Shown: positions 912 through 64,000 of the stretch, piece after piece
Numbering within the stretch: the first letter of the stretch is position 1
Layout of the letters: each line of letters opens with the position of its first letter
Assembly (NCBI GenBank): GCA_964574655.1
Contig: CAZNOH010000001.1
Span: forward strand, 201,852 to 265,851
DNA length: 64,000 nucleotides
Reading direction: 5' to 3'
Source: an uncultured Candidatus Saccharibacteria bacterium
GTDB lineage: Bacteria > Patescibacteriota > JABMPQ01 > JAQVVF01
Program-made: the position numbers and the translations under genes
Notes under the pieces: model-generated
Database searches by the model: none
The model's input: the letters and a program-made list of their open reading frames with translations, nothing else
What the model was told of the DNA's origin: nothing

Positions 912-940
912 GTAGAGACGTAGCAATGCTACGTCTCTAT
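912..940. repeat. GTAGAGACG-loop-CGTCTCTAC hairpin element, copy 1
   Basis: gtagagacgtagcAATgctacgtctcta. A 29-nt string identical to this one occurs at 36995-37023. The element sits in the 42-bp in-frame gap between the two ComEC halves. Confidence 0.7.
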
Positions 941-4692: not shown

Positions 4693-5013
4693 ATGCCAAA
4701 ATGGCGCAATCGAAAAACTGATAATTTAATAAATGTGATTCTTGATTTGAAAAATCAAAAAGAAGCGCGGAATTTTTTTCGTGATCTTTTGACGGAGCCG
4801 GAATTGATTGAATTTGGTAATCGTTGGCAAGCGGTACAAATGTTGGATCGTAAAATTTCTTATACTAAAATTGTAAAACAGACTGGTTTGAGTTCTCGAA
4901 CAGTTGCAAGAATTTCTAAATGGCTGAATGATGGGATGAATGGCTATAGATTGTCTTTAGATAGATTAAATAAAAAAAATCATCATTACTCTTCTTATCT
5001 CAGGAAGAGCTAA
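4693..5013 (+). CDS. TrpR-like YerC/YecD family DNA-binding protein
   Basis: The HTH region TKIVKQTGLSSRTVARISKW resembles the YerC/YecD family. Confidence 0.6.
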   Translation: MPKWRNRKTDNLINVILDLKNQKEARNFFRDLLTEPELIEFGNRWQAVQMLDRKISYTKIVKQTGLSSRTVARISKWLNDGMNGYRLSLDRLNKKNHHYSSYLRKS

Positions 5014-5089: not shown

Positions 5090-5863
5090 ATGCAATTACC
5101 AAATCTAAAAATTGAATCAGAATTAATTTCAAAATATGTTTTATTGCCTGGCGATCCTGGTCGAGTTGATTTGATTGGAAAAAAATTAAAAAAGTTCAAG
5201 ATTTTTGGCCAGAATCGGGAATTTAGAATTGGCCAGGGATATTATAGAGGAATTTTAATAACAGTATGTTCAACAGGTATTGGTTGTCCTTCAACTGCTA
5301 TTGCAACTGAGGAATTAATAAAAGCGGGTGCAAAAGTTTTAATTCGTGTTGGTACATGTGGAGGAGCTTGGAAATTTGAAATAAAAGAAGGCAGTCTAAT
5401 AATTCCAACTGCTTCAATTCGAGATGAGGGGACAACTAAAGAATACATCGATCAATCTTTTCCGGCTGTTGCAAATTTTGAAGTAATTGATGCACTGATA
5501 GAATCAGCAAAAAAAAGGAAGCAAAAATATTTTGTTGGAATTAATAGAACGCATGACGCATTTTATGGAAATTTTGAATCTATAACGAAATGGGGTAAAT
5601 ATTTGTTGGATGATAAAAAGAATATTGATATGCCAATTTTATCTTCTGAGATGGAAAGTTCAGCTTTATTTGTTATTGCTTGTTTGAGAGGTGTTCGTGC
5701 TGGAGCGATATTGGCTGTAAATTCAAAACCTGAGCCACTGCTGGAAAGGCTGAAAGGCCAGAAGAAAAAAGTAATTACAGAATCAAGTTTAGATTTAACG
5801 AAAAAAACTGTTGAAAAAATGATTGATGTGGTTTTAGAGGCAATATTAATTTTAAATAAATAA
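5090..5863 (+). CDS. Nucleoside phosphorylase of the PNP/UDP family (DeoD/Udp-like)
   Basis: GDPGRVDLIG, STGIGCPS and the TCGG segment are characteristic of the PNP_UDP_1 fold. Confidence 0.65.
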   Translation: MQLPNLKIESELISKYVLLPGDPGRVDLIGKKLKKFKIFGQNREFRIGQGYYRGILITVCSTGIGCPSTAIATEELIKAGAKVLIRVGTCGGAWKFEIKEGSLIIPTASIRDEGTTKEYIDQSFPAVANFEVIDALIESAKKRKQKYFVGINRTHDAFYGNFESITKWGKYLLDDKKNIDMPILSSEMESSALFVIACLRGVRAGAILAVNSKPEPLLERLKGQKKKVITESSLDLTKKTVEKMIDVVLEAILILNK

Positions 5864-5865
5864 TT

Positions 5866-6501
5866 ATGAAAAAAGTTATTTGTTTTGATTTGTGGAAAAC
5901 TTTGGCTTATGAGCCATATTCTTTAGAAGGATATTTTGACTTGGCAATTAAAAAATATCCCAAGAAGGTTACCAATGCAAAAATATTAAGGTTGATTGAT
6001 GAAATTCCGATGAAAAATAGTTTTACTTTGAAAAAATCAGTCAGATTAATACTAGCTGAATTGGGAATTTGCGATGAAAAGTTGGTCAAACAGATAGTGA
6101 AGGCTTGGCAATATTCTTGTGATAATGCCGAACTGTTTTTTGATGCGTTGCCAATTTTAAAAAAATTAAGAAAAAAATATTTGTTAGTTTTAATTACAAA
6201 TACTTCGAAATATGGTTGGAATAGTATAAGTCGGAAGTTCAATTTGAATCAATATTTTGATTTTGTTGCAAAATCTTTTGAGTTAGGTTATGTGAAACCA
6301 GAAACAGAAATTTTTGAGTTTATTGAGAATAAATTCAAAATTTATGAATCAAATGTATTAATGATTGGTGATTCCAGAGAAAAAGATATTTTGCCAGCTG
6401 AAAAAAGAGGTTGGAAAGTAATTAGAATAGACAGAACAATCAAGAGAAAGAATAAGAAAGTAATAAAGACTTTGTTGGATTTAGAAGGAATTACTTTTTG
6501 A
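5866..6501 (+). CDS. HAD-superfamily hydrolase (subfamily IA-like)
   Basis: N-terminal FDLWKTL (DxD-type motif I) and C-terminal MIGDSxxxD. Confidence 0.6.
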   Translation: MKKVICFDLWKTLAYEPYSLEGYFDLAIKKYPKKVTNAKILRLIDEIPMKNSFTLKKSVRLILAELGICDEKLVKQIVKAWQYSCDNAELFFDALPILKKLRKKYLLVLITNTSKYGWNSISRKFNLNQYFDFVAKSFELGYVKPETEIFEFIENKFKIYESNVLMIGDSREKDILPAEKRGWKVIRIDRTIKRKNKKVIKTLLDLEGITF

Positions 6502-6586
6502 TTTTTACTTTTGATAAGGAATTATTTTGGAAGTCTGTTTTGCACCTTAAAAATTAACAATCTCCAAAAGAGGAGAGGAGGGAGAG

Positions 6587-7507
6587 ATGGAAGAGAAAAA
6601 AGGATCGTCGGGATGCCAAGTTCTGATTGGCGAGACTGTAGAAAAGAAAGGAAATAGAGATGCCTTGAAGTTGGAATTGGATGCTTATTTGCGATTGGAA
6701 AATATTTTGGGAGAGAAAAGTAATGTTTTGCCTAAGATTTTGGGATTTGTTGAAGATGAAAATAAGGCAGTATTAAAGTTGGAAAGACTACCTGGCAATG
6801 TTGATTTGGAACAATATATTTTAATAGTTTTTGATGAAGCAGAGAAAATTGAGAATATTAGAATTATGATCGGAAATGTTCTTGAAATGTTGGATGATTG
6901 GTTAGCAATAAAATCAACTGATGATCCAGAAATTTTGTTGTGTGAGATTGGGCAGGCATTGAATGTTGCTTGGGAAAAATATGTGCGACTTGGCGGAGAT
7001 CAAAACTTATTTGATTCTGTTGCGTTGAAAAGTTTTGTAACTGACAAAAAGATTAGAGAATTTCTTTTGACTGGTGTTTCTTTGGGACCATGCCATCGTG
7101 ATCTTTGTACTAACAATATTTGGCCATTGTCAGATAATTCAGTACAGGTTTTTGATCCCAGATGGCAACTGACAGGATCAAGCGTTACAAGCATTGGTCA
7201 TGTTGTTTTGGATCTAGCGTCATTTCGGATTAATTTGGAAAGATTGCAAGCAGATCGGTTCAAAAATGGTTTGTCATTATTGATTCCAATTGACATTGTT
7301 GATTCAAAAATTGATGAATGGATTAGGCAGAAACATTTTGTTAGAGAGTTGTACGATTTGGTATTGCTCAGAAGATATATTGCTTTTGCAGCGTGTAGGT
7401 GTGAGCATTGTATTCATCCATCGCGCTTGCATCGTTTTGAACTGATGGAAAAGCAAGCAGCAATAGTAGGGAATAAGTTGATTAATATTTTTGCAAGGAG
7501 ATCTTAG
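6587..7507 (+). CDS. Kinase-like phosphotransferase (APH / choline-kinase fold)
   Basis: An HRDLCTNN catalytic-loop-like motif. A strong SD (gaggagaggagggagag) precedes the ATG. GC is slightly higher than in neighbouring genes. Confidence 0.45.
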   Translation: MEEKKGSSGCQVLIGETVEKKGNRDALKLELDAYLRLENILGEKSNVLPKILGFVEDENKAVLKLERLPGNVDLEQYILIVFDEAEKIENIRIMIGNVLEMLDDWLAIKSTDDPEILLCEIGQALNVAWEKYVRLGGDQNLFDSVALKSFVTDKKIREFLLTGVSLGPCHRDLCTNNIWPLSDNSVQVFDPRWQLTGSSVTSIGHVVLDLASFRINLERLQADRFKNGLSLLIPIDIVDSKIDEWIRQKHFVRELYDLVLLRRYIAFAACRCEHCIHPSRLHRFELMEKQAAIVGNKLINIFARRS

Positions 7508-8110
7508 ATGCCTGTAGTTTGTTTTGATTTATGTAATACATTAATTACTGCTGGCAAGAAGCAAAGAGGCTACGAAATTATTTTGCAAAGATTTGGATTG
7601 CAGAAAGAACAGTTATATCCTTTTGTTCGTGATGTTTTGATGGTTAAGAAAGAAATTACCTATCGAGAAATGGTTGAAGAATTATTTCAACACCTTGGAT
7701 TAGAAAAGGAAGAATTGGCTAAATTAGAAACTGAAAGACTATGGGCAGAAGATAATAAAAGTTATGTTTGGCTATCGGGAGCGCAAGATTGTTTAGGGCA
7801 GTTGCATAAAAGAGGAATAAGATTAGTCTTGATTTCTAATTTGACATTTCCAGCTTGGCAGGAAATTGATTCCGGACTCGATGTCTCGTCTATGTTTGAC
7901 GAACTTTTCTTGTCATGTATGGTTGGTATATCAAAACCTAATCCGGATATTTTTCGAAAAGTAGTAGAACAATTTGCTTATGAAAAATTTTGGATGATTG
8001 GTGATAGTCAGTTAGATGATATTGAGCCGGCAAAATTGATGGATTGGCAGACTATTCTTGTGCCAAAATCAGCGACTGATTTTCCTTTAATTTTGAGGAG
8101 TTTGTTGTGA
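7508..8110 (+). CDS. HAD-superfamily hydrolase
   Basis: FDLCNTLI motif I and MIGDSQLDD motif. Start and stop overlap the neighbouring genes, suggesting an operon. Confidence 0.6.
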   Translation: MPVVCFDLCNTLITAGKKQRGYEIILQRFGLQKEQLYPFVRDVLMVKKEITYREMVEELFQHLGLEKEELAKLETERLWAEDNKSYVWLSGAQDCLGQLHKRGIRLVLISNLTFPAWQEIDSGLDVSSMFDELFLSCMVGISKPNPDIFRKVVEQFAYEKFWMIGDSQLDDIEPAKLMDWQTILVPKSATDFPLILRSLL

Positions 8111-8538
8111 TGAAAGTTTTAATTTTTGATATTGATTTGGATAAAGGACTGATGAAATCATTTGAAAATTTTGGTTTTGTTGTTTGCGATGTTGAAGAAA
8201 TGACGCAAAGTATTTTGGAATGGGAAGGCTGGAAGGATTTTGACAGATCGAGGACTGTATTGGTCTTTCCAGGTAATGGCGCGAATTTGTTGAAAAGATA
8301 CTTGTCTGAAGATTGGTTAGCTGGTTGGAAAACTGAAAGTGTTTTTGCAAAGCGGTTTTGGGAACCGGGGAGAGATCCTTATGTTATAGTTGAACGAATA
8401 TTTCCAAATCAGATGGCATTAGGTATTGAAAGAATTGTGTTGTTAGATGATGTTGTTTCTAGTGGGATGACATTTAGAAAAATGCGCAAGAAAAATAGTC
8501 CTTGGATTCCCAATGTATCATGGAGTGGCGTGACCTAG
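8107..8538 (+). CDS. Type I phosphoribosyltransferase, N-terminal 143 codons up to an in-frame TAG
   Basis: PRPP-binding motif IVLLDDVVSSGMTF. Confidence 0.55.
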   Translation: MMKVLIFDIDLDKGLMKSFENFGFVVCDVEEMTQSILEWEGWKDFDRSRTVLVFPGNGANLLKRYLSEDWLAGWKTESVFAKRFWEPGRDPYVIVERIFPNQMALGIERIVLLDDVVSSGMTFRKMRKKNSPWIPNVSWSGVT

Positions 8539-8739
8539 ATTATCCAAAAGGCAGCCAATACGATTGGGTTTGAAAATGTTTTTGCTGTTAAAACATTTGG
8601 AGAGAGCGATACAAAAGTGCCGATTATATCTTTGTCAACTTTGATTATGGAAAAGGATATTGCAGTTTCTTTTGCAAAACGTAATTTTTCTGCTGAACTT
8701 GGTTTGGAATTCTTAGCTTTATTGGAGAAATTAAGGTAG
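8107..8739 (+). pseudogene. Phosphoribosyltransferase interrupted by an in-frame TAG at 8536-8538 (nonsense pseudogene or readthrough candidate)
   Basis: The same frame stays open for 66 more codons after the TAG, to a second TAG at 8737. That is far longer than expected by chance in 30% GC DNA. The combined 210 aa matches the normal PRTase length. Confidence 0.4.
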
Positions 8740-8795
8740 AGTTTGTTCCTTGAAGACCTAGCAATAGGTCTTTTTTTATGATAGGATAATCTTTA

Positions 8796-8849
8796 ATGTG
8801 GATTCTTTTCTTGACAAGATATTCTAATAGTATATAATGAATTATATGA
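8796..8849 (+). promoter_or_regulatory. Terminator-promoter module: gaatccatataatgtggattc hairpin, T-run, then TTGACA-17-TATAAT
   Basis: A near-identical 30-bp module (aatgtggattcttttcttgacaa) is reused at 12282-12336, and a related one at 13392-13444. Confidence 0.5.
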
Positions 8850-8855
8850 AAAATA

Positions 8856-8912
8856 TTAGCCGACAATTTCATATGCATTTCTGGTATTCAATGATTTTGA
8901 GTCGGCTTTTTA
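8856..8912 (+). ncRNA. Candidate small RNA (about 57 nt): promoter-proximal transcript ending in a hairpin plus U-run
   Basis: Begins a few nt after the -10 box. The agccgac...gtcggct stem is followed by a T5 run. It contains no ORF. Confidence 0.25.
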
Positions 8913-8946
8913 TTGCGTAAGTTTATACTAAATATTTTATAAAAAA

Positions 8947-9160
8947 GCTGGCTCAAAATTTGGGCCAGTTTTTGTTTGAATCGCGAATATACACAAATGC
9001 GAATATAAGTTTTAATAAATATTATGTTAAATATCAGTCGACAATTTAATTTTTATATGTGGTATTACCATTTCATTTTTATGAGTCGGCTTTTGCGTTT
9101 ATAAGATAATTATTATTTTAAATATATTGTGCAAAGACCGGCTCTAAAGGCCGGTTTTTG
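8947..9160 (+). repeat. Cluster of three more hairpin + T-run units
   Basis: The units are ctggctc..gggccag+T5 (8948-8974), gtcgac..gtcggc+T4 (9036-9094, a paralog of the 8867-8912 hairpin with a G-U-compatible change), and accggc..gccggt+T5 (9133-9158). Confidence 0.45.
8980..9008. repeat. CGCGAAT / CACAAAT / GCGAAT phased units (same family as the r-protein-operon spacer arrays)
   Basis: tcgcgaatatacacaaatgcgaatat. Confidence 0.4.
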
Positions 9161-9180
9161 ATTGTTCTTTACAACAAGAG

Positions 9181-9250
9181 GATCCACCTACGCTTGCGAG
9201 CTTTGGTGGATAAGTCCGCCTTCGTCCTGTGGGACTTTGGCGGACAAGGG
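9181..9250 (+). repeat. GGCGGACAAG hairpin/leader element, copy A
   Basis: ccacc..ggtgg and gtccgcc..ggcggac stems, followed by a purine-rich SD and an ATG. Homologous copies occur at 12211-12262, 12396-12447 and 17885-17950. Confidence 0.5.
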
Positions 9251-9260
9251 AGAAAAGGAA

Positions 9261-10979
9261 ATGCAAGGGATAACAGGACAACAGCATAGCTCTAATGAAC
9301 AAGAAAATTTTGGAAGAAGCTTGGAAAGAGAATATTTGGAACAAGGTTTGTATTGGGGTAGGATTGGTAGTAAGCCAAAAGATTATACTGCGCGGATTGG
9401 AATGGAAACTTATCCATTGAGTGGAAGCGAGGTTGAAACTTTGAGAAGACTGGGAATTTTAATTCCTAGATTTTTAGAAGGATGTGTTGATTTAGCGAGA
9501 AGATCTGTGTCTGGTGAATATCCATGGCTCTGGCAGGATTTGTGTTTTGGGAGATCGGATTTGCAAATTGCTATTTGGAAAAGAGAGCTTGAAAGAAAAG
9601 ATATCGTGTTGGCAAAGAGAGTAAGAATCGATGCGATTCGCACTGACAAAGGCTTGAGAATTAATGAGTTTACTTTAGGAGCGACTGGATCTGGATATAG
9701 CGGCTTAATTGATCTGATTTCTCGTAAGTTTTTTACGGGAAAGAATTTTTTTGAACCAATTGCCAAAAAATATGTTGAGGCAATACATGATCTGTTGCCA
9801 AACGGTGGTTTTGTTGGTATTCTTTTGACTCCATGGCGAGAATTATATGGGCCGGAGCAGTTTGCTTTGACTGGCTTGCTAAATGAATTTGGGAAAATCT
9901 TTGGTCTAAAATTTGCATTTGCATTTACTTATGAGGCTGAAGCAAGAGAAGGTGGCGTGTATTTGAGAGGCGAAAAATTGGATTTGATTGAAAGAGTTTT
10001 TAAAGAGTATACAGAAATTGATAAATTGATCTTGAATAGACTGGTAGGGCTTGCTGCAAAAATTGAGAAGCAGATTATTGATGCATATTTTGAAGGAAAG
10101 GTATTGTTGCATCCAAATCTTTTGACTTTTCTTGATTATAAAGAGTTGATGGCTTGGTTGTTTGACGAAGAGTTAGAATCAGAATGGAGAAAATATTTGA
10201 CAGACGACATGTTTGAGGAACTGAAAAATATTTTTGCTTACACAATTATTTTTAGGCCAGGTAGTTTTGTTTGGAAAGGCAAGAAATATGAAGAATCAGC
10301 CATGAGAGATTTAGAAAGCCAAATAGTGAAAAACATGGAATTTGAATTTGAAGGTAAAAGATTGATGCTGTTTTGTAATAATGGAGTGCAAACAAATGTT
10401 TGGACTGGTGAAAGTCTTATCGATGGTTTGGGAAATCTTGATGTGATAATTGATTGGCTAAATAAGATTGAATGTGGGAGCTATACTTGTCCAAAACAAA
10501 TAGCAGATCAAATTACTTTTTTTGCTAAGTCAGACCGTTTAATTATGATTGAAAAAGAAAGTGGGAGATGGAAGTTGAAGATCGTACAAGTTAAGAATGT
10601 TTTGTACTCTGATATTGTTTTGAAATTGTCTGGTGGAGATAACCAAGCAGCAGGTGGACACGGGATTGCTATTAGTAGATTGATGCCAAGAAAAATATGG
10701 AGTCGACATGTTAGTAATTTTTTGAAGCTAGCTCAAGTAAGAACTGTTGTTGCTCAAGAATATTGTGAGATGGCAGTTGATGAGATGATGGTCTTTGATC
10801 CAGTGACCAAAAAAGTGAGTAAAGAAAATGTAAGAACAAGAATTTGTGTTTGGTACTGGCTTGATAATGATGCGAGCAATTCTAGTTTTGGAGGAAATAC
10901 GGTAACTTGCATTCCAATCTCTGACGGCTATATTGTGCATGGCCGGTCTAATTCGGCGATGACGGCTTGTTCTTTTTAA
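9261..10979 (+). CDS. Hypothetical 572-aa protein (possible ATP-dependent ligase-like enzyme; not recognisable from sequence alone)
   Basis: Long ORF with an SD (aagggagaaaaggaa) 6 nt upstream. I chose 9261 over the ORF-track start at 9162, which lies inside the repeat element. GC is higher than in its neighbours. Confidence 0.5.
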   Translation: MQGITGQQHSSNEQENFGRSLEREYLEQGLYWGRIGSKPKDYTARIGMETYPLSGSEVETLRRLGILIPRFLEGCVDLARRSVSGEYPWLWQDLCFGRSDLQIAIWKRELERKDIVLAKRVRIDAIRTDKGLRINEFTLGATGSGYSGLIDLISRKFFTGKNFFEPIAKKYVEAIHDLLPNGGFVGILLTPWRELYGPEQFALTGLLNEFGKIFGLKFAFAFTYEAEAREGGVYLRGEKLDLIERVFKEYTEIDKLILNRLVGLAAKIEKQIIDAYFEGKVLLHPNLLTFLDYKELMAWLFDEELESEWRKYLTDDMFEELKNIFAYTIIFRPGSFVWKGKKYEESAMRDLESQIVKNMEFEFEGKRLMLFCNNGVQTNVWTGESLIDGLGNLDVIIDWLNKIECGSYTCPKQIADQITFFAKSDRLIMIEKESGRWKLKIVQVKNVLYSDIVLKLSGGDNQAAGGHGIAISRLMPRKIWSRHVSNFLKLAQVRTVVAQEYCEMAVDEMMVFDPVTKKVSKENVRTRICVWYWLDNDASNSSFGGNTVTCIPISDGYIVHGRSNSAMTACSF

Positions 10980-10999
10980 GGATTGTTCTTTTATGGATT

Positions 11000-11033
11000 G
11001 GTTAACAAATGTAAAATTTTGTTAACCTTTTTT
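11000..11033 (+). terminator. Intrinsic terminator
   Basis: ggttaacaaa..ttgttaacc stem followed by a T6 run. Confidence 0.55.
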
Positions 11034-11130
11034 GAAAATTACTAAATTTAAGATATACTAAATTGTTAAATTGTTCAATTGTTAATTCGAAAAAATATTG
11101 TATGGTAAAAAATGATGTTAATTAAATTTT

Positions 11131-12210
11131 ATGACAAAACAAGAAAAAGAAGCATTGAAAACTTTTTTAAGTTTAATAAAAATTGATAGTGAAACAGGCA
11201 ATGAAAAATTGGTTGCTGATTTTATTATTAATTATTTAAGAAAAATTAATGTTAATGCAATCAAAGATAAATTTGGAAATGTTATTGCAAAGATAAAAGG
11301 AAAAGGTGAACCAATTATTTTGTGTGCTCATATGGATACGGTAGCGCCTGGAAAAAATATAAAGCCAATAGTTAAGAATGGCGTGATTAGGAGCGATGGC
11401 AAGACAATTTTGGGAGCTGATGACAAGGCTGGTATTGCTGGTATTCTTTTTGCAGTTAAAAATTCAAGAAATAAAAAAAATAATAAACCTTTAGAATTGA
11501 TTTTTACAGTTGAAGAAGAAATTGGCTGTGTTGGCGCAAGAAATTTGGTTTTTAATACTATTAAGTCTAAGAAGGCAATAATTGTTGACAGTTCATCACG
11601 TTGTGGTTTTATTACAATTGGCGCTCCTTTTATTCAAAGTTTTTCAGGTGAAATCATTGGTAAAATGGCGCACTCGCGCGCACCAGAGGAAGGAATAAAT
11701 GCAATTAATTGTTTTGCGGAATTTGTAAAAATGTTTAGACCAGGAAGAATCAGTAAATATTGTGTTTCAAATATTGGCTTTGTTTCTGGTGGAAGAGGCG
11801 GTAACGTGATTTGCGATCAAATAAATTTTGTCGGCGAGATTAGAGCAATAGATAATGATGTTTTCAGAAAACGAGTTATTATTCTTAAAAAAATATTAAA
11901 AAATGCTTGCAGAAAATTTGGTGCAAAGTATAAACTAAAAATGGAGGAAAGCGTTGTTGGTTATGATCATAAGAAGAATAGCGCTTTGGTTAAAATGATT
12001 TGTAATGGGATAAAAAAAACTGGTTTAAAAGTATCATACGAAAAAAGAATGGGAGCAACTGATGCTAATGTATTTTGTGAAAAAGGAATAGAGGCTTTGA
12101 GTATTGGTTATGGTCGAGAAAAATGTCATAGTGTGAAAGAAAATATCAGGGTTTCGGATCTGGTAAAAATAGCGGGAATTCTTGAAAATCTGATACGCCT
12201 ATGTCCATAG
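11131..12210 (+). CDS. M20-family metallopeptidase (ArgE/DapE/PepT-like)
   Basis: CAHMDTV and GADDKAGIAG metal-ligand motifs. Confidence 0.7.
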   Translation: MTKQEKEALKTFLSLIKIDSETGNEKLVADFIINYLRKINVNAIKDKFGNVIAKIKGKGEPIILCAHMDTVAPGKNIKPIVKNGVIRSDGKTILGADDKAGIAGILFAVKNSRNKKNNKPLELIFTVEEEIGCVGARNLVFNTIKSKKAIIVDSSSRCGFITIGAPFIQSFSGEIIGKMAHSRAPEEGINAINCFAEFVKMFRPGRISKYCVSNIGFVSGGRGGNVICDQINFVGEIRAIDNDVFRKRVIILKKILKNACRKFGAKYKLKMEESVVGYDHKKNSALVKMICNGIKKTGLKVSYEKRMGATDANVFCEKGIEALSIGYGREKCHSVKENIRVSDLVKIAGILENLIRLCP

Positions 12211-30253: not shown

Positions 30254-30265
30254 ATGATTTCATAA

Positions 30266-30289
30266 TAGGGAACAAATTTTTGTTCCCTA
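30266..30289 (+). terminator. Perfect palindrome hairpin tagggaacaaa|tttgttcccta after tuf (attenuator/terminator-like; no clean T-run)
   Basis: 11-bp stem. Confidence 0.4.
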
Positions 30290-30309
30290 TTAATTATTAT
30301 TAAGCCCTT

Positions 30310-36994: not shown

Positions 36995-37023
36995 GTAGAG
37001 ACGTAGCAATGCTACGTCTCTAC
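36995..37023. repeat. GTAGAGACG hairpin element, copy 2 (identical to copy 1)
   Basis: gtagagacgtagcAATgctacgtctctac. Confidence 0.7.
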
Positions 37024-37033
37024 AAAAATAATT

Positions 37034-37729
37034 ATGACAGAATTACAAAAAAAATATAATGAGAAGATTGTGCCTTTTATGAAGGAGAAGTTTGGTTATA
37101 AAAATGTAAATGAAATTCCAAGGATCTCTAAGATTGTTTTGAATATTGGTGCAGGAAAGACCTTGAAAGATCCAAAATTAATTGATATAATGATTGATAA
37201 CCTGAAAAGAATCAGCGGACAGGCTCCAGTTAAGACTCGCGCTGCAAAATCAATCGCTGGATTTGGCATTAAAGAAGGTCAAGTAGTAGGTTTGGCAGTA
37301 AATATGCGCGGTGCTAGAATGTATGAATTTTTGAACAAGTTTGTCAATGTCGCTCTACCAAGATTTAGAGATTTTCAAGGTTTGTCTCCGGAAGCGTTTG
37401 ATGGACAAGGAAATTACAATATTGGAATAAAGGAACAAATTGTTTTTCCAGAAATAAAGGCTGATGAAATTGAAAAGGTGCATGGATTAGAAGTAACCAT
37501 TGCAACAACTGCTGAAACCGATGAAGAGGGGTTGGAACTTTTAAAAGCTATCGGATTTTTATTTAGAAAACGCGGTGAAAGAGCAAAGGAAGAAGCGTTG
37601 AAAGAAGTCAGCAGAAAAGAATCGGTCATGAAGAGATATGATGCAATGAAAAAGAAACAAACTGTAGTTGGAGTAATTCCATCTGCTAAGGTAAAGTCTG
37701 AAGCTCCAAAGAAAGAAAAGTCTAAATAA
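37034..37729 (+). CDS. rplE: Ribosomal protein L5 (C-terminal extension)
   Basis: Typical L5 core. Confidence 0.9.
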   Translation: MTELQKKYNEKIVPFMKEKFGYKNVNEIPRISKIVLNIGAGKTLKDPKLIDIMIDNLKRISGQAPVKTRAAKSIAGFGIKEGQVVGLAVNMRGARMYEFLNKFVNVALPRFRDFQGLSPEAFDGQGNYNIGIKEQIVFPEIKADEIEKVHGLEVTIATTAETDEEGLELLKAIGFLFRKRGERAKEEALKEVSRKESVMKRYDAMKKKQTVVGVIPSAKVKSEAPKKEKSK

Positions 37730-37943: not shown

Positions 37944-37972
37944 GTAGAGACGTTGCATTGCAACGTCTGTAC
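37944..37972. repeat. GTAGAGACG hairpin element, copy 3
   Basis: gtagagacgttgcATTgcaacgtctgtac. The inner stem changed tagc/gcta to ttgc/gcaa, which is compensatory. Confidence 0.65.
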
Positions 37973-42656: not shown

Positions 42657-42665
42657 TCTTTCAAA

Positions 42666-42689
42666 AGAAGGCTAAAGCCTTCTTTTTTC
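42666..42689 (+). terminator. Intrinsic terminator
   Basis: agaaggct-aaa-gccttct stem followed by a T6 run. Confidence 0.6.
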
Positions 42690-46405: not shown

Positions 46406-46451
46406 CAAGCGCTGATTAAACGCTGATTTCCAACGCTGATTTAACGCTGAT
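46405..46451. repeat. Post-stop ACGCTGAT array (4 units; spacings 11, 13 and 11 bp)
   Basis: caaGCGCTGATtaaACGCTGATttccaACGCTGATttaACGCTGATa. Confidence 0.7.
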
Positions 46452-46481
46452 AGGGGCATAGAATTGTGCCCCTATTTTTTT
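46452..46481 (+). terminator. Intrinsic terminator
   Basis: aggggcatagaattgtgcccct stem followed by a T8 run. Confidence 0.65.
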
Positions 46482-46578: not shown

Positions 46579-47322
46579 ATGAAACTTTCGATAATCATTC
46601 CGGCATATAATGAAGAAAAAAGAATAACAATAACTTTAAATTCTATTAAAGAATATTTGAATAAGCAAGATTATGATTGGGAAGCTATTGTTGTTGATGA
46701 TGGAAGCAAAGACAAGACTCGTGAAGTTGTGAAAAATCTTGATGGTTTTGTTTTGAATGAAAAAAGAGAAAATAAAGGCAAGGGTTATTCAATAAAAGAA
46801 GGGATGCTTTTGGCATCAGGGGATTTTTGTCTTTTTATGGATGCTGATAATGCAACAAAAATCAATGAATTAGATCATTTTTGGAAATATTTTGATCCTC
46901 CTGCGTCCCGAGGGACTTCGGAGGACAAGTCCGATTATGATGTTGTGATTGGTTCTCGTGATATTAAAGGATCAAAGTTAGCAGTGTCTCAAGCTTGGTA
47001 TAAAGAGCTGGCTGGAAAAATCGGTAATTTGTTGATTCAAATCGTAGCCTTGCCTGGTATTCATGATACTCAATGCGGATTTAAGATTTTTAAGCGAGAA
47101 GTTGTGAGAGATGTTTTTCCAATCCAGAAATTAGGCGGATGGGGATTTGATGTTGAAATTTTGGCATTAGCCAAAAAGTTTGGTTATAAAATAAAAGAAG
47201 AGCCGATAACTTGGTTTAATGCTGCTGGAAGCAAAGTAAGTACGGGAGATTATTTGAAAGTTTTTTCTGACCTATTTAAAGTGAGATGGTGGCTGTGGAC
47301 GAATAAATATAAAAAAATGTAG
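46579..47322 (+). CDS. Family 2 glycosyltransferase (dolichyl/polyprenyl-phosphate glycosyltransferase-like)
   Basis: SIIIPAYNEEKRI, DDGSKDKT and a DAD motif. Confidence 0.7.
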   Translation: MKLSIIIPAYNEEKRITITLNSIKEYLNKQDYDWEAIVVDDGSKDKTREVVKNLDGFVLNEKRENKGKGYSIKEGMLLASGDFCLFMDADNATKINELDHFWKYFDPPASRGTSEDKSDYDVVIGSRDIKGSKLAVSQAWYKELAGKIGNLLIQIVALPGIHDTQCGFKIFKREVVRDVFPIQKLGGWGFDVEILALAKKFGYKIKEEPITWFNAAGSKVSTGDYLKVFSDLFKVRWWLWTNKYKKM

Positions 47323-47347
47323 AGACGAGGCAATGTCTCGTCTTTAC
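47319..47347. repeat. GTAGAGACG hairpin element, copy 4
   Basis: gtagagacgaggCAATgtctcgtctttac. Confidence 0.6.
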
Positions 47348-47930: not shown

Positions 47931-48692
47931 ATGCGAAATAAATTAATAGTTGGCAATTGGAAAATGAATTTAACTTTGGAAGAAGCTCGAAGGTTGACTT
48001 TGGATGTTAGGCAAGGATTAACAAATTTAAGTGAAAAAGTGGAAGTTGCAGTTTGTCCTTCCTTTGTTCACTTGGCTAATGTTCATTATCAATTGCCTTC
48101 TAGTATAAAATTAGGGGCTCAGGATGTGTTTTGGAAAGGAAATGGAGCTTATACTGGCGAGATTTCTTGTGATCAACTTTTGGATTTAGGCTGTTCTTAT
48201 GTAATTGTTGGTCATTCTGAAAGAAGAAAAAATCTGAAAGAAACAGATGTTATAATTAACGATAAAGTCTTAGAATGTTTGAGAAAAGGTTTGAAGCCAA
48301 TAATTTGTGTTGGAGAAACAAAAGACGAAAAAGAAAAAGGAATGACAGAGGAAAAAGTGACACAGCAAGTTGAAGTAGCTTTAGAAGGTGTGAAAAGTAA
48401 GGATGTCGTGAATGTAACAATAGCCTATGAACCAATCTGGGCAATAGGATCAGGAAATTCTGCTGAACCATCCGATGCTCAAGCTGTAATTTTTAGAATA
48501 AGAGATATTTTGAGAAATAATTATTCAGAAAAAGAATCAGAAATGATAAGGATTTTGTATGGGGGAAGTGTAGATCCGCAAAATGTTGCGTCTTTTGTTT
48601 TGGAAAAAGATATTGATGGCGTGTTGGTTGGTGGAGCGAGTATTAAAGCTAATGAATTTGTGGGAATTGTAAAACAGGTTTTAAAAATCTAA
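47931..48692 (+). CDS. tpiA: Triosephosphate isomerase
   Basis: VGNWKMN and IVGHSERR, with the AYEPIWAIGSG motif. Confidence 0.9.
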   Translation: MRNKLIVGNWKMNLTLEEARRLTLDVRQGLTNLSEKVEVAVCPSFVHLANVHYQLPSSIKLGAQDVFWKGNGAYTGEISCDQLLDLGCSYVIVGHSERRKNLKETDVIINDKVLECLRKGLKPIICVGETKDEKEKGMTEEKVTQQVEVALEGVKSKDVVNVTIAYEPIWAIGSGNSAEPSDAQAVIFRIRDILRNNYSEKESEMIRILYGGSVDPQNVASFVLEKDIDGVLVGGASIKANEFVGIVKQVLKI

Positions 48693-48838
48693 TGTCCAAG
48701 AAACAAGAAACAAACAAATCTCAAATTAAAATAACCAATTACCAAACTCGTCGTCGAAGGGTTTGATTATTGGTTATTGAATATTGGAATTTGTTTGTAT
48801 TTTGTATCTTGGTTATTAAATCTTATTTATAAATCATT

Positions 48839-57082: not shown

Positions 57083-58387
57083 ATGAAAAAAATAATAAAA
57101 ATAAATCATCTAGCTAAAATGGAAGGGCATGCTTCGTTTGAAGGCAAGATTTTGGCAGGAAGAATTTTAGAAGCGCATATTATTACAGAAGAAGGCGCAA
57201 GATTAATTGAGGGAACATTGGTAGGCAGACATTATTCTGAAGCGTCGACGATTACTTCCAGAATTTGTGGGATCTGTCCAATTGTTCATCATCTAACAGC
57301 TGTGAAAGCTTTGGAAGAATGTTTTGATGTTAAAGTCAGCTCTGAAACTATAATGCTTAGAAAAGTTTTGGAATTAGCGCAAATAATTCATAGCCATACT
57401 TTGCATCTTTTCTTTTTGTCTTTACCTGATTTTTTGAATTATGATGATACAAAAAAGATGGCAGGTAGATATCCTAATGAAGCGCAGATGGCAATTGATA
57501 TTCGGAAATGGGCGACTGATTTATGTTTAGTAATTGGTGGTAGAATTACACATCCTTTGACAAATATGGTAGGCGGATTTAGGAAATGGCCCGAAGAAGA
57601 AAATTTAGAAAAATTTTTAGATGGTTCTGGTGATATTTTGGAGATGGCATTAAAAATCGCCCAATTATTTAGAGATTTAGATTATCCAAAGTTTGATAAT
57701 CTAGGAAACTTTATTGCGTTATCAAATGATACTGAATATGCAATCTATGAAGGCGAAGTTAAAATTTGGGAGACAAAGAAAAATTTAGCTAAAAAAATAT
57801 TTGGCAAGCAAATGAAAGGAATAAGTGCAACGAAATTTATTAAGAAAATTAAAGAAATAGAATTGCAAAATGAATTGGTAAAAAGAGTGAAGTATAATGG
57901 AAAGTCTTTTTTTTGTGGAGCATTAGCAAGGATTAATATCAATAAATATCTGTTGAATGAAGAGTCTTCAAAATTTTTAGAAACAACAAATATTGATTTT
58001 CCAACAGATAATACTTTTTATAATGTTTTAGCTCAAGCTGTTGAGGTTATTCATTGTGTTGAAGAAATCAGAAATTTATTGAGAGAATTAAAGAAGATAA
58101 ATTGGTTGAAGGCTAAAAATACGAGTTTTAAAATTAAGGCTGGCAAAGGAGTGGCTGCAATTGAGGCGCCGAGAGGGACTTTGTATCATTATTATGAAAC
58201 TGATAAAGATGGATATATTAAAAACTGTAATATAATTACGCCAACAGCGCAGTTTTTGGCAAAATTAGAAGATGATTTGAGTGTGTTTTTATCTGATGTT
58301 AAAAATTTGCCGGATTTGGAAAGAAAAAATAAAATAAAAATGATGATAAGGGCGTTTGATCCGTGTATTAGTTGCGCTACGCACTAA
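57083..58387 (+). CDS. [NiFe] hydrogenase large subunit (alpha), ending at the Ni-site His with no C-terminal extension
   Basis: N-terminal RICGICPIVHH (RxCGxC) and C-terminal DPCISCATH followed directly by a stop codon. Confidence 0.85.
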   Translation: MKKIIKINHLAKMEGHASFEGKILAGRILEAHIITEEGARLIEGTLVGRHYSEASTITSRICGICPIVHHLTAVKALEECFDVKVSSETIMLRKVLELAQIIHSHTLHLFFLSLPDFLNYDDTKKMAGRYPNEAQMAIDIRKWATDLCLVIGGRITHPLTNMVGGFRKWPEEENLEKFLDGSGDILEMALKIAQLFRDLDYPKFDNLGNFIALSNDTEYAIYEGEVKIWETKKNLAKKIFGKQMKGISATKFIKKIKEIELQNELVKRVKYNGKSFFCGALARININKYLLNEESSKFLETTNIDFPTDNTFYNVLAQAVEVIHCVEEIRNLLRELKKINWLKAKNTSFKIKAGKGVAAIEAPRGTLYHYYETDKDGYIKNCNIITPTAQFLAKLEDDLSVFLSDVKNLPDLERKNKIKMMIRAFDPCISCATH

Positions 58388-58419
58388 TTTTACAAATACA
58401 AAAAATAATTTAAAATATT

Positions 58420-58851
58420 ATGAAAAAACAAAATAGAAAAAAAATAAACAAGGATGTTACAGTCAGAAGTTTATCAGAAAAAATTGATAAGCGTTTTGAG
58501 CAAGTTGATAAGCGTTTTGATAAGATGATGAAAGTAATGGATAATAGATTTGGTGAGTTGTATAGTTTTTTACAAAAACACATGGTAACAAAAGAGGAAT
58601 TTAATGAAAGATTGTTGAAGTTGGAAAACAGAATTGAGAATATTGAACAAAATTATTCAACGAAGGATGATTTATTGAAAGTAAAAGATGAACTTTTGAC
58701 ATTAATGGATAAAATTATTAATGATTATAAAAAAGATAAACAAGAACATGCTTTTTTCAGTTATCATCTGGAAAGAATTGCAAAATTAGAATATCGGATT
58801 GATAAAATAGAGGGTAAGAAAGTTAAAGACTTAAAATTTACAAATGCATGA
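58420..58851 (+). CDS. Hypothetical coiled-coil protein
   Basis: 143 aa with heptad-like charged repeats. Confidence 0.35.
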   Translation: MKKQNRKKINKDVTVRSLSEKIDKRFEQVDKRFDKMMKVMDNRFGELYSFLQKHMVTKEEFNERLLKLENRIENIEQNYSTKDDLLKVKDELLTLMDKIINDYKKDKQEHAFFSYHLERIAKLEYRIDKIEGKKVKDLKFTNA

Positions 58852-59101
58852 CTTTCATGCGGCGGACAATTTATTAAAGATGGCACTTGAACATGCAAAG
58901 AAAAATAAACTGAGAAAAGTTGACAAAATTAAAATTGAATTAGGAAAATTTGTTGAGCATGGGCAAGAAATATTAGCAGATAATTTGAAATTTAATATTA
59001 AAATGTTGGCTAAAGGTACGATTGCTAAAAATGCAGAAATTGTTATTATTGAGAAACAAGGTGAAAGAGGCTATGAATTAGTAGAGATTGAAGGAGAATA
59101 G
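58844..59101 (+). CDS. Minimal HypA-like nickel metallochaperone lacking the zinc-finger domain
   Basis: MHDFHAADNLLKMALEHAKK parallels the HypA MHE-Ni site plus helix. The C-terminal YELVEIEGE parallels the HypA end. There are no Cys at all (HypA normally has CxxC..CxxC). Confidence 0.45.
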   Translation: MHDFHAADNLLKMALEHAKKNKLRKVDKIKIELGKFVEHGQEILADNLKFNIKMLAKGTIAKNAEIVIIEKQGERGYELVEIEGE

Positions 59102-59103
59102 AT

Positions 59104-59132
59104 GTAGAGACGTCCAATTTGGGCGTCTGTAC
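59104..59132. repeat. GTAGAGACG hairpin element, copy 5
   Basis: gtagagacgtccAATTTgggcgtctgtac. Confidence 0.55.
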
Positions 59133-63299: not shown

Positions 63300-63866
63300 A
63301 TGAAAATAAAAATTGAAGTCAGTGCTCGACATATTCATTTGAGCCAAGAACATTTAGATCAACTTTTTGGAAAAGATCATAAATTAACAAAAAAGTTAGG
63401 TTTGTCGCAAGAAGGTGAATTTGCCTGTGAAGAAACTTTGAAAGTTGTGGGACCAAAAGGGAAAATTGAAAATGTCAGGATTATCGGACCTGTTCGATCA
63501 AAAACTCAAATAGAAGTTTCGAAAACAGATGGTTTTATGCTAGGCAATATTCCTCCTTTGTGTGTTTCTGGTGATGTTGTTGGTTCTGCACCTGTAAAAT
63601 TAGTTGGTCCTAACGGCTCCGTTGATTTATTGGAAGGCATGATCATTGTGATGAGACATGTTCATATATCTATTGGTAAAGCCAAAGAATTAAATTTAGA
63701 AAATGGGCAAAGAGTTTCTGTTTCTTGTCTAGGAGATCGAGGATTATTATTTGATAATGTTGTTGTTAGAGTTAAAGAAAATTTTCAATTCTTTTTTCAG
63801 ATTGATACTGATGAAGCAAATGCGGCTGGTGTTGAAAATGGAGATGTCGGGGAGTTAGTTGTTTAA
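63300..63866 (+). CDS. PduL-type phosphate acyl(acetyl/propanoyl)transferase
   Basis: Two internal repeats, each with an xRHxHxS motif (SARHIHLS and MRHVHISIG). The length of about 190 aa is typical of PduL. Confidence 0.65.
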   Translation: MKIKIEVSARHIHLSQEHLDQLFGKDHKLTKKLGLSQEGEFACEETLKVVGPKGKIENVRIIGPVRSKTQIEVSKTDGFMLGNIPPLCVSGDVVGSAPVKLVGPNGSVDLLEGMIIVMRHVHISIGKAKELNLENGQRVSVSCLGDRGLLFDNVVVRVKENFQFFFQIDTDEANAAGVENGDVGELVV

Positions 63867-63867
63867 T

Positions 63868-63957
63868 TTCTACCTGGCTTTAGCCAAGGGGTTTGAAAGC
63901 TTTAGCTTTCGTACCTGGAGCTAAAGCTCCACAACCCTTCAGCTAAAGCTGAGTAGA
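63868..63957 (+). repeat. 92-nt three-hairpin element, copy 2
   Basis: Its 5' outer arm is identical (26/26) to 50197-50222, and its 3' arm is diverged. The inner hairpins are gaaagc-ttta-gctttc and ggagc-taaa-gctcc: different sequences but the same structure as in copy 1. Confidence 0.6.
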
Positions 63958-64000
63958 AATTTGTAAATAATTTTATGAAAGAACAATTTGGTGAAAAAAT

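Follow-up and report, generated by a model that had tools for sequence, protein, structure and literature searches.

The window analyzed in this study, i.e., the whole stretch of 64,000 nucleotides from an uncultured Candidatus Saccharibacteria bacterium, contains five copies of a hairpin of 29 nt, and these are very probably double-foot REPs (repetitive extragenic palindromes), a "selfish" DNA and the cognate substrate of TnpA_REP subclass 2.4 RAYTs (REP-associated tyrosine transposases, HUH-Y1), that were inserted between the genes of this Patescibacteria lineage. Sequence and structure together indicate membership in this family. The same hairpin occurs with RAYT genes in other genomes, and orthologous sites in relatives show presence/absence polymorphism; we infer that the copies were spread by a RAYT of this genome or of a recent ancestor. 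The element consists of a 13-bp stem and a 3-nt loop, within the 7-20 nt of paired basal stem and the 2-5 nt of loop that characterize double-foot REPs; a GTAG foot and a conserved lower stem of 9 bp are followed by a variable, always complementary upper stem of 3-4 bp. The five copies are as follows.

REP copy 1, positions 912..940, + strand: GTAGAGACG-TAGC-AAT-GCTA-CGTCTCTAT; covariance model score, 46.1 bits.
REP copy 2, positions 36995..37023, + strand: GTAGAGACG-TAGC-AAT-GCTA-CGTCTCTAC, a perfect 13-bp double-foot palindrome; 49.1 bits.
REP copy 3, positions 37944..37972, + strand: GTAGAGACG-TTGC-ATT-GCAA-CGTCTGTAC, in which pair 4/26 is a G-G mismatch; 47.4 bits.
REP copy 4, positions 47319..47347, + strand: GTAGAGACG-AGGC-AAT-GTCT-CGTCTTTAC; 43.9 bits.
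REP copy 5, positions 59104..59132, + strand: GTAGAGACG-TCCA-ATT-TGGG-CGTCTGTAC; 42.5 bits.

An earlier note on this DNA had described five copies at these positions, placed them in spacers between co-directional genes and found no T-run after any of them. All three points are confirmed: GTAGAGACG is on the + strand in every copy, all five are extragenic and lie between co-directional genes of the + strand, and none is followed by a T-run on that strand. The note had also called copies 1 and 2 identical at 29 of 29 positions; they agree at 28, the last base being T in copy 1 and C in copy 2. In an independent assembly of the same organism (L001), the copies are identical to those of the window.

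All five copies are located 0-10 nt past a stop codon and 8-24 nt ahead of the next start. Copy 1 lies 5 nt 3' of the TAA (904-906) of the ORF that encodes the Competence domain of comEC, with a second in-frame TAA at 907-909, and the ATG of the MBL-domain ORF is 8 nt downstream. Copy 2 has rplX (L24) on one side and rplE (L5) on the other, 10 nt from each, and copy 3 occupies the spacer between rpsN (S14) and rpsH (S8); both are within the S10-spc ribosomal-protein operon. The GT2 glycosyltransferase gene upstream of copy 4 uses the TAG of the GTAG foot as its stop codon, and a small multidrug-export gene starts 19 nt downstream. Copy 5 begins 2 nt past the stop codon of a HypA-like gene, and pgk follows 15 nt downstream.

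Several features of the surrounding DNA were also observed. The lineage was assigned to Patescibacteria: a ComEC that shares a 90%-identity cluster with P0006, a protein 71% identical to the ComEC of the window, bears that name. The GC content is 33%, no L30 gene is present between those of S5 and L15, and the source contig has 654 kb. The L5 protein (positions 37034-37729) has 231 aa in this clade, whereas approximately 179 aa are found in most other bacteria; the additional length lies in a C-terminal extension of approximately 50 residues, which relatives at 73-93% identity share. Directly 5' of pgk, positions 57083-59101 encode a NiFe-hydrogenase large-subunit-like protein (434 aa), a 143-aa ORF without a Pfam match, and the short HypA-like protein (85 aa). 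Two long imperfect palindromes, at positions 48684-48824 just 3' of tpiA (70-nt arms, 76% complementary) and at positions 63865-63961, 3' of the last ORF (43-nt arms, 77% complementary), are unrelated in sequence and may represent repeats or terminators of other classes.

The presence of the five hairpins is real and greatly exceeds what is expected by chance. With at most one mismatch, GTAGAGACG occurs 12 times in the window, compared with an expectation of 2.8, and 10 of these 12 occurrences are arms of the five hairpins; the expectation for the full perfect palindrome is 0.00. A covariance model built from the five copies and run on the window recovers exactly these five, with scores of 42.5-49.1 bits on the + strand and 31.8-48.4 bits on the - strand, whereas the next-best match in the window reaches 12.6 bits. 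The DNA folding z-scores of the copies are -4.7 to -8.1 (copy 1, -12.0 kcal/mol, z = -7.2). No Rfam 15 family matched anywhere in the window at the gathering thresholds, and around copies 2 and 3 a search at E values up to 1 gave only chance-level matches (E 0.5-0.7).

In the alignment of the copies, 97.4% of the cells are paired, and 4 of the 13 pairs, which are the four pairs of the upper stem, are changed on both sides; the covariation score was reached by none of 500 shuffles. The inner stems are TAGC/GCTA (twice), TTGC/GCAA, AGGC/GTCT (with one G·T pair), and TCCA/TGGG (with one T·G pair). The covariation of the inner stem that the earlier note had described is therefore present, although the stems AGGC/GTCT and TCCA/TGGG had been listed there with other letters. 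The constancy that it had ascribed to the outer stem applies to the 5' arm only. The GTAG of the 5' foot (GT[AG]G in double-foot REPs) is invariant in all five copies and in a further copy from a relative (L203), whereas the 3' arm varies, with C, C, G, T, and G at position 26 of copies 1 to 5 and T at position 29 of copy 1. The 3' foot CTAC is intact in copy 2 and in the L203 copy; in the other four copies of the window, it is CTAT, GTAC, TTAC, and GTAC, and a G-G mismatch in the foot occurs in two of the five.

Close relatives were found through the protein database, as a scan of metagenomes with L5 gave matches at 54% identity or less. The L5 proteins of L205, L206, and L209 are 91% identical to that of the window, and those of L207 and L208 are 77% and 73% identical, respectively. 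The hairpin is missing from both the rplX/rplE and the rpsN/rpsH spacers in all five of these relatives. When the rpsN/rpsH spacers are aligned, the sequences of L205, L209, and L207 have a clean gap of 33 columns, and the flanks are conserved on either side. Since the ribosomal spacers are empty in relatives and their flanks are conserved, the copies in the window are insertion polymorphisms and not conserved features of the operon. The recent spread that the earlier note had read from the copies it took as identical is supported by this absence from orthologous spacers. A scan with the covariance model found no copy in 64 kb from the loci of five close relatives and one copy in L203; 80 more distant L5 loci (54% identity or less) contained no hairpin. 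No duplicated flanks are visible when filled and empty sites are compared. An autoregulatory site for S8 or another ribosomal protein at the start of rplE was considered and rejected, as the same element is located at comEC, at the GT2 gene, and at pgk and is missing from the rplX/rplE spacer of relatives. In L208, a different GC-rich palindrome (CCTTGCTTGCCGGCAAGCAGG, positions 4716-4759) is located in the rplX/rplE spacer, where the window has a REP; this spacer seems prone to acquiring hairpins.

The position of copy 1 had led the earlier note to link the element to the separation of the two comEC domains. The copy does lie in the gap between the Competence and MBL domains, and the gap is in frame; it contains, however, four in-frame stop codons. 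The Competence-domain and MBL ORFs are separate in every close relative, i.e., in L202 (92%), L203/L204 (71%), L210 (54%), and L211 (49%), and a fused ComEC appears only at 31-37% identity. The hairpin is present at this junction in the window and in L203/L204 only. As the same split is present in L202, L210, and L211, from which the element is missing, the gene was not split by the hairpin, and the proposed link is refuted. The gap in L202 (positions 11433-11528) holds, in place of the REP, an unrelated 96-nt inverted-repeat element, whose 17-nt inverted ends (GTAGCAAGAAATTATTT...AAATAATTTCTTGCTAC) start with GTAG and end with CTAC; no second exact copy of it was found in the loci fetched, in which only weak matches with 3 mismatches occur. 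The gap in L210 has neither the REP nor an element of the L202 type. The comEC/MBL junction is simply one spacer that tolerates insertions. The L203 copy at this site has a compensated upper stem and the loop AAT; long retention of a possibly useful copy at 71% identity (L203/L204) fits these observations as well as repeated insertion does. The split itself is clade-wide (window, positions 1-1815; L211, positions 6001-11142), and the MBL-domain gene encodes a hydrophobic segment of its own at the N-terminus. Two genes on the reverse strand of L211, both of unknown function, are located between the comEC halves.

When one genome of each bacterial species was scanned for the exact pattern, at least 120 loci were obtained. 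By record title, approximately 49 of the loci among the matches listed are from Cyanobacteria, approximately 47 from the Bacteroidota group, approximately 10 from Chloroflexota, 4 from Acidobacteriota, and 10 from others, including one Patescibacteria MAG. Roughly 200 matches to the pattern are expected by chance across the 596 Gb covered. Of the 135 elements in the loci among the matches listed, however, 121 have a stem longer by 3 bp or more, for which approximately 5% would be expected by chance (estimated by hand). As chance matches would not be hairpins, these elements are real hairpins. The CTAC foot is present in 110 of the same 135 elements. Across phyla, the lower stem is kept in sequence, whereas the upper stem and the loop are free.

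All ORFs of the loci from the pattern scan were clustered without a prior assumption, and one ORF family overlaps or abuts the hairpin in six loci (L023, L024, L066, L069, L096, and L121). For each of the six ORFs, the sole NCBIfam family is NF047646, "REP-associated tyrosine transposase" (E 6e-18 to 6e-9, with matches that fall below the equivalog cut-off), and they match Pfam Y1_Tnp weakly. Their motifs are NHLH or NHFH, YIxNNP or YIxDNP, and, in four of the six, WQ (WH in L069 and FL in L066). Homologues of these ORFs number in the thousands and carry the JGI name "REP element-mobilizing transposase RayT"; the best 120 in a profile search are nearly all from Bacteroidota or without a name.

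The hairpins flank the six RAYT genes or are located in-frame within them. In L121, a Paludibacteraceae MAG, seven tandem, slightly degenerate hairpins with a period of 57 bp are located on one side of the RAYT gene (positions 5214-5584), and one perfect copy is on the other side (positions 6424-6451); this array is a BIME-like cluster and a textbook REPtron. In L024, pairs of hairpins are present on both sides of the RAYT gene. The hairpins of L023 (positions 1893-1920) and L096 (positions 1250-1277) are in-frame and are translated as ...RRDAMHRVST... and ...VETHGRASL..., respectively; in the RAYT of L096, DSH and SNEQ peptide repeats are also located at the in-frame hairpin. No RAYT was found in the 64-kb window or in approximately 97 kb of the close relatives' loci, either by tblastn with the six RAYT ORFs or by hmmsearch with their profile. 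The best tblastn match (positions 6923-7009 of the window, E 0.027) was dismissed as noise, and the ORF there has no Pfam match.

The hairpin was also observed on IMG/VR contigs labelled viral (L212-L331), in which at least 120 loci (1.0 Mb) contain 153 elements, 128 of them with a complementary upper stem; no RAYT ORF is present on these contigs among the loci listed. The explanation is either that REPs accumulate in phages whose hosts carry a RAYT or that many of the contigs are in fact bacterial. Hairpin pairs spaced 1857 nt apart on such contigs were considered as a composite element and rejected, as they come from one contig sampled repeatedly, with ordinary genes and no RAYT between them.

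The features of the six ORFs and their hairpins correspond to those described by Quentin et al. 2018 (PMC6006769, BMC Genomics 19:475) for TnpA_REP subclass 2.4 (Bertels group 4), which has the motifs NH[IFV]H, WQ, and YIxNNP. The REPs of this subclass are of the "double foot" type, with 5' GT[AG]G and 3' C[TC]AC, and the subclass is plentiful in Cyanobacteria and Bacteroidetes and scattered elsewhere (PMC6006769). In subclass 2.4, REPs are inserted in-frame within tnpAREP (PMC6006769), an oddity that the in-frame hairpins of L023 and L096 match. Additional file 2 of that study contains GTAGAGACGCACGGCCGTGCGTCTCTAC beside a subclass-2.4 gene and the string "gtagagacg" 15 times. As GTAGAGACG...CGTCTCTAC hairpins are present in this file, the element family is already catalogued, and what is new is only the lineage of the host and the insertion within the operon of ribosomal-protein genes. 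A literature search with the literal hairpin sequence gave primer and cloning matches only, and the sequence is absent from the supplements of Di Nocera et al. 2013. Work on RAYTs in vitro has covered group 2 and 3 enzymes only (PMC8266576), and transposition of REPs by a RAYT in vivo has never been demonstrated for subclass 2.4. Among the roles suggested in the earlier note, a REP/MITE-like mobile palindrome is the one that the evidence supports, i.e., the hairpins match a catalogued RAYT-linked REP family and are absent from the orthologous spacers of relatives.

In the mechanism proposed, the transposase would bind the hairpin folded in single-stranded DNA along with the GTAG foot, would cleave and rejoin the DNA beside the hairpin, and would in this way copy hairpins into new sites. 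Only copies that still fold would stay substrates, which would give rise to the covariation of the stem. In a compact genome, the copies would have been inserted at the few sites where insertion is tolerated, i.e., in short spacers 0-10 nt past stop codons, two of them in the ribosomal-protein operon, and would then have decayed slowly through loss of C on the + strand. The four copies with decayed feet are compatible with relics of a past burst and may be inactive.

The decay of the copies is related to their strand. Per 4 kb, the GC skew ranges from +0.21 to +0.38 across the whole window (about +0.3), and nearly all genes are on the + strand, which indicates that the + strand is the leading-strand sequence, i.e., the lagging-strand template. 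The whole window is on one replichore and shows an extreme strand bias. In all six departures from the perfect palindrome, a C of the + strand has been replaced by T or G: by T at position 29, by G in two cases and by T in one at position 26, and by T at positions 18 and 10; the last two changes were polarized by near-identical elements in L022 and L035. The constant location of GTAG on the lagging-strand template, where Y1 transposases act, was counted in favor of the REP reading, an argument that has since been weakened. Uniform orientation as a sign of directional insertion was rejected, as the loop of copy 3 (ATT) complements the AAT of copies 1, 2, and 4 and of the L203 copy; strand-biased decay of the foot that contains C therefore explains better why GTAG is restricted to the + strand.

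A wider reading of the hairpins as REPs is that a family usually typical of Cyanobacteria, Bacteroidota, and Chloroflexota is proliferating, or was until recently, in an ultra-small Patescibacteria genome, either because a RAYT arrived by horizontal transfer, possibly from the phylum to which the symbiont's host belongs, or with the hairpins co-opted as operon-internal mRNA punctuation in the ribosomal-protein operon and at the comEC/MBL junction. We regard this as unlikely. If a RAYT was indeed acquired from the phylum of the host, the REP type would be a marker of host association.

It is quite improbable that the hairpins are functional RNA elements under RNA-level selection, i.e., operon-internal stem-loops that protect against 3' exonucleases, RNase III sites, or structures that slow terminating ribosomes. 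All five copies are located inside apparent operons, on the sense strand and 0-10 nt past a stop codon, so they must be transcribed, and transcription of the hairpins is certain. E. coli REPs reportedly stabilize upstream mRNA and stall ribosomes when located within ~15 nt of a stop codon (Newbury et al. 1987; Liang, Rudd, and Deutscher 2015). In a relative at 71% identity, the comEC/MBL junction also holds the element, whose upper stem there is compensated, and the imperfect pairs, all G·T on the + strand, go along with a + strand that folds better than the - strand. Loss of C on the + strand, however, produces G·T pairs and a better fold of that strand without RNA-level selection, as expected from a C-depleting strand bias, and all six deviations are such losses; the G·U asymmetry is thus fully explained and is not evidence for selection on RNA. 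The ribosomal spacers, moreover, are empty in relatives at 91%, 77%, and 73% identity and in the 80 more distant L5 loci, the same sequence is located at unrelated loci of unrelated phyla beside RAYT genes, and Rfam contains no match. An RNA role would at best follow secondarily from REP insertion and would not be the origin of the family; as a by-product, the hairpins may affect mRNA decay or ribosomes at termination codons, as those of E. coli do. The earlier note had concluded from the covariation that selection acts on RNA or cruciform structure. Selection on structure stands, most simply as the single-stranded DNA hairpin that a transposase needs, whereas the G·U evidence is confounded.

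Double-stranded DNA binding sites, such as those of gyrase or of a nucleoid protein, or paired sites of a type IIS restriction-modification system, are a very improbable explanation. The lower stem is conserved in sequence and not in pairing alone, it includes GAGACG/CGTCTC, the BsmBI/Esp3I sequence, and the REP/BIME elements of E. coli bind gyrase and IHF. A duplex site, however, does not need the complementary upper stem that is present in 121 of the 135 elements among the matches listed, and variants that break the hairpin and preserve the sequence are not equally frequent in genomes. The clustering of ORFs showed no restriction-modification or binding-protein gene enriched near the elements; the gene with which they were found to be associated encodes a single-strand-specific HUH transposase.

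Intrinsic terminators or attenuators between genes can hardly be meant, even though the copies are stable GC-containing stem-loops in intergenic spacers and copy 4 was flagged as terminator-like (on the - strand only), as no copy was flagged on the + strand, A-rich sequence and no T-run lies downstream, two copies are inside the S10-spc operon, conventional hairpin-plus-T-run terminators of unrelated sequence are present at positions 30263-30292, 42663-42686, and 46449-46476 of the window, and such a role would leave a 9-bp stem conserved across phyla unexplained.

The identification of the hairpins as probable REPs gives a name and a mechanism to a short, conspicuous repeat that would otherwise be mistaken for a new regulatory RNA, and it removes a tempting but wrong link to the split of comEC. 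It also indicates that covariation in a hairpin and an apparent "G·U" signal can stem from the need of a transposase for a DNA hairpin combined with strand-biased mutation, and not from RNA function. A catalogued REP family is extended to the candidate phyla radiation, for which such mobile elements are not described in the literature searched; no paper found there links REPs with Patescibacteria. Should so reduced a genome contain a RAYT, a "domesticated" transposase system would persist under strong genome streamlining.

Among known systems, a MITE (a body of 70-300 bp, terminal inverted repeats of 15-30 bp, and target-site duplications) was rejected as a counterpart, as the element of the window is a single hairpin of 29 nt. 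The subterminal hairpins of IS200/IS605 are similar in that a DNA hairpin and a 5' tetranucleotide "guide" are recognized by a Y1 HUH transposase in single-stranded DNA, with a bias for the lagging-strand template. They end, however, an element of 0.7-2 kb that carries its own transposase, whereas the hairpins of the window are solitary 29-nt elements without cargo.

The REPs of Stenotrophomonas maltophilia (SMAG) and other group 3 REPs are, like the elements of the window, short perfect palindromes (8 bp in their case) with a 3-nt loop and a GTAG foot. The integrity of their stem is needed for cleavage in vitro (PMC8266576). As Di Nocera et al. 2013 (PMC3733652) note for GTAG REPs, the families are divided into sub-families that differ in the complementary residues of the stem, and G-T pairs are frequent. 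They differ in their stem sequence, in the lack of a 3' CTAC foot, in a RAYT of subclass 2.5 (group 3), and in their number, which is typically hundreds of copies that are often dimers.

E. coli REP/BIME elements (TnpA_REP Ec, group 2) are likewise GTAG-tagged extragenic palindromes in multiple copies, mostly just 3' of coding regions, and they are the substrate of an HUH-Y1 enzyme that acts on one DNA strand only (PMC8266576). In E. coli REPs, the GTAG is unpaired, a bulged imperfect stem is required for activity, and the elements usually form inverted pairs (BIMEs), whereas those of the window are singly dispersed perfect palindromes in which GTAG is paired with a 3' CTAC.

Compared with the double-foot REPs of subclass 2.4, the elements of the window differ in their host, as Patescibacteria (CPR) are absent from the survey of Quentin et al., in the decay of the 3' foot in four of five copies, and in the lack of a RAYT gene within the 64 kb of the window. 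Both have 5' GTAG and 3' CTAC feet, a fully paired stem of 12-13 bp, a loop of 3-4 nt, and a length of 28-29 nt, and they share an identical lower stem (GTAGAGACG/CGTCTCTAC), a matching taxonomic spread, and in-frame copies within RAYT genes.
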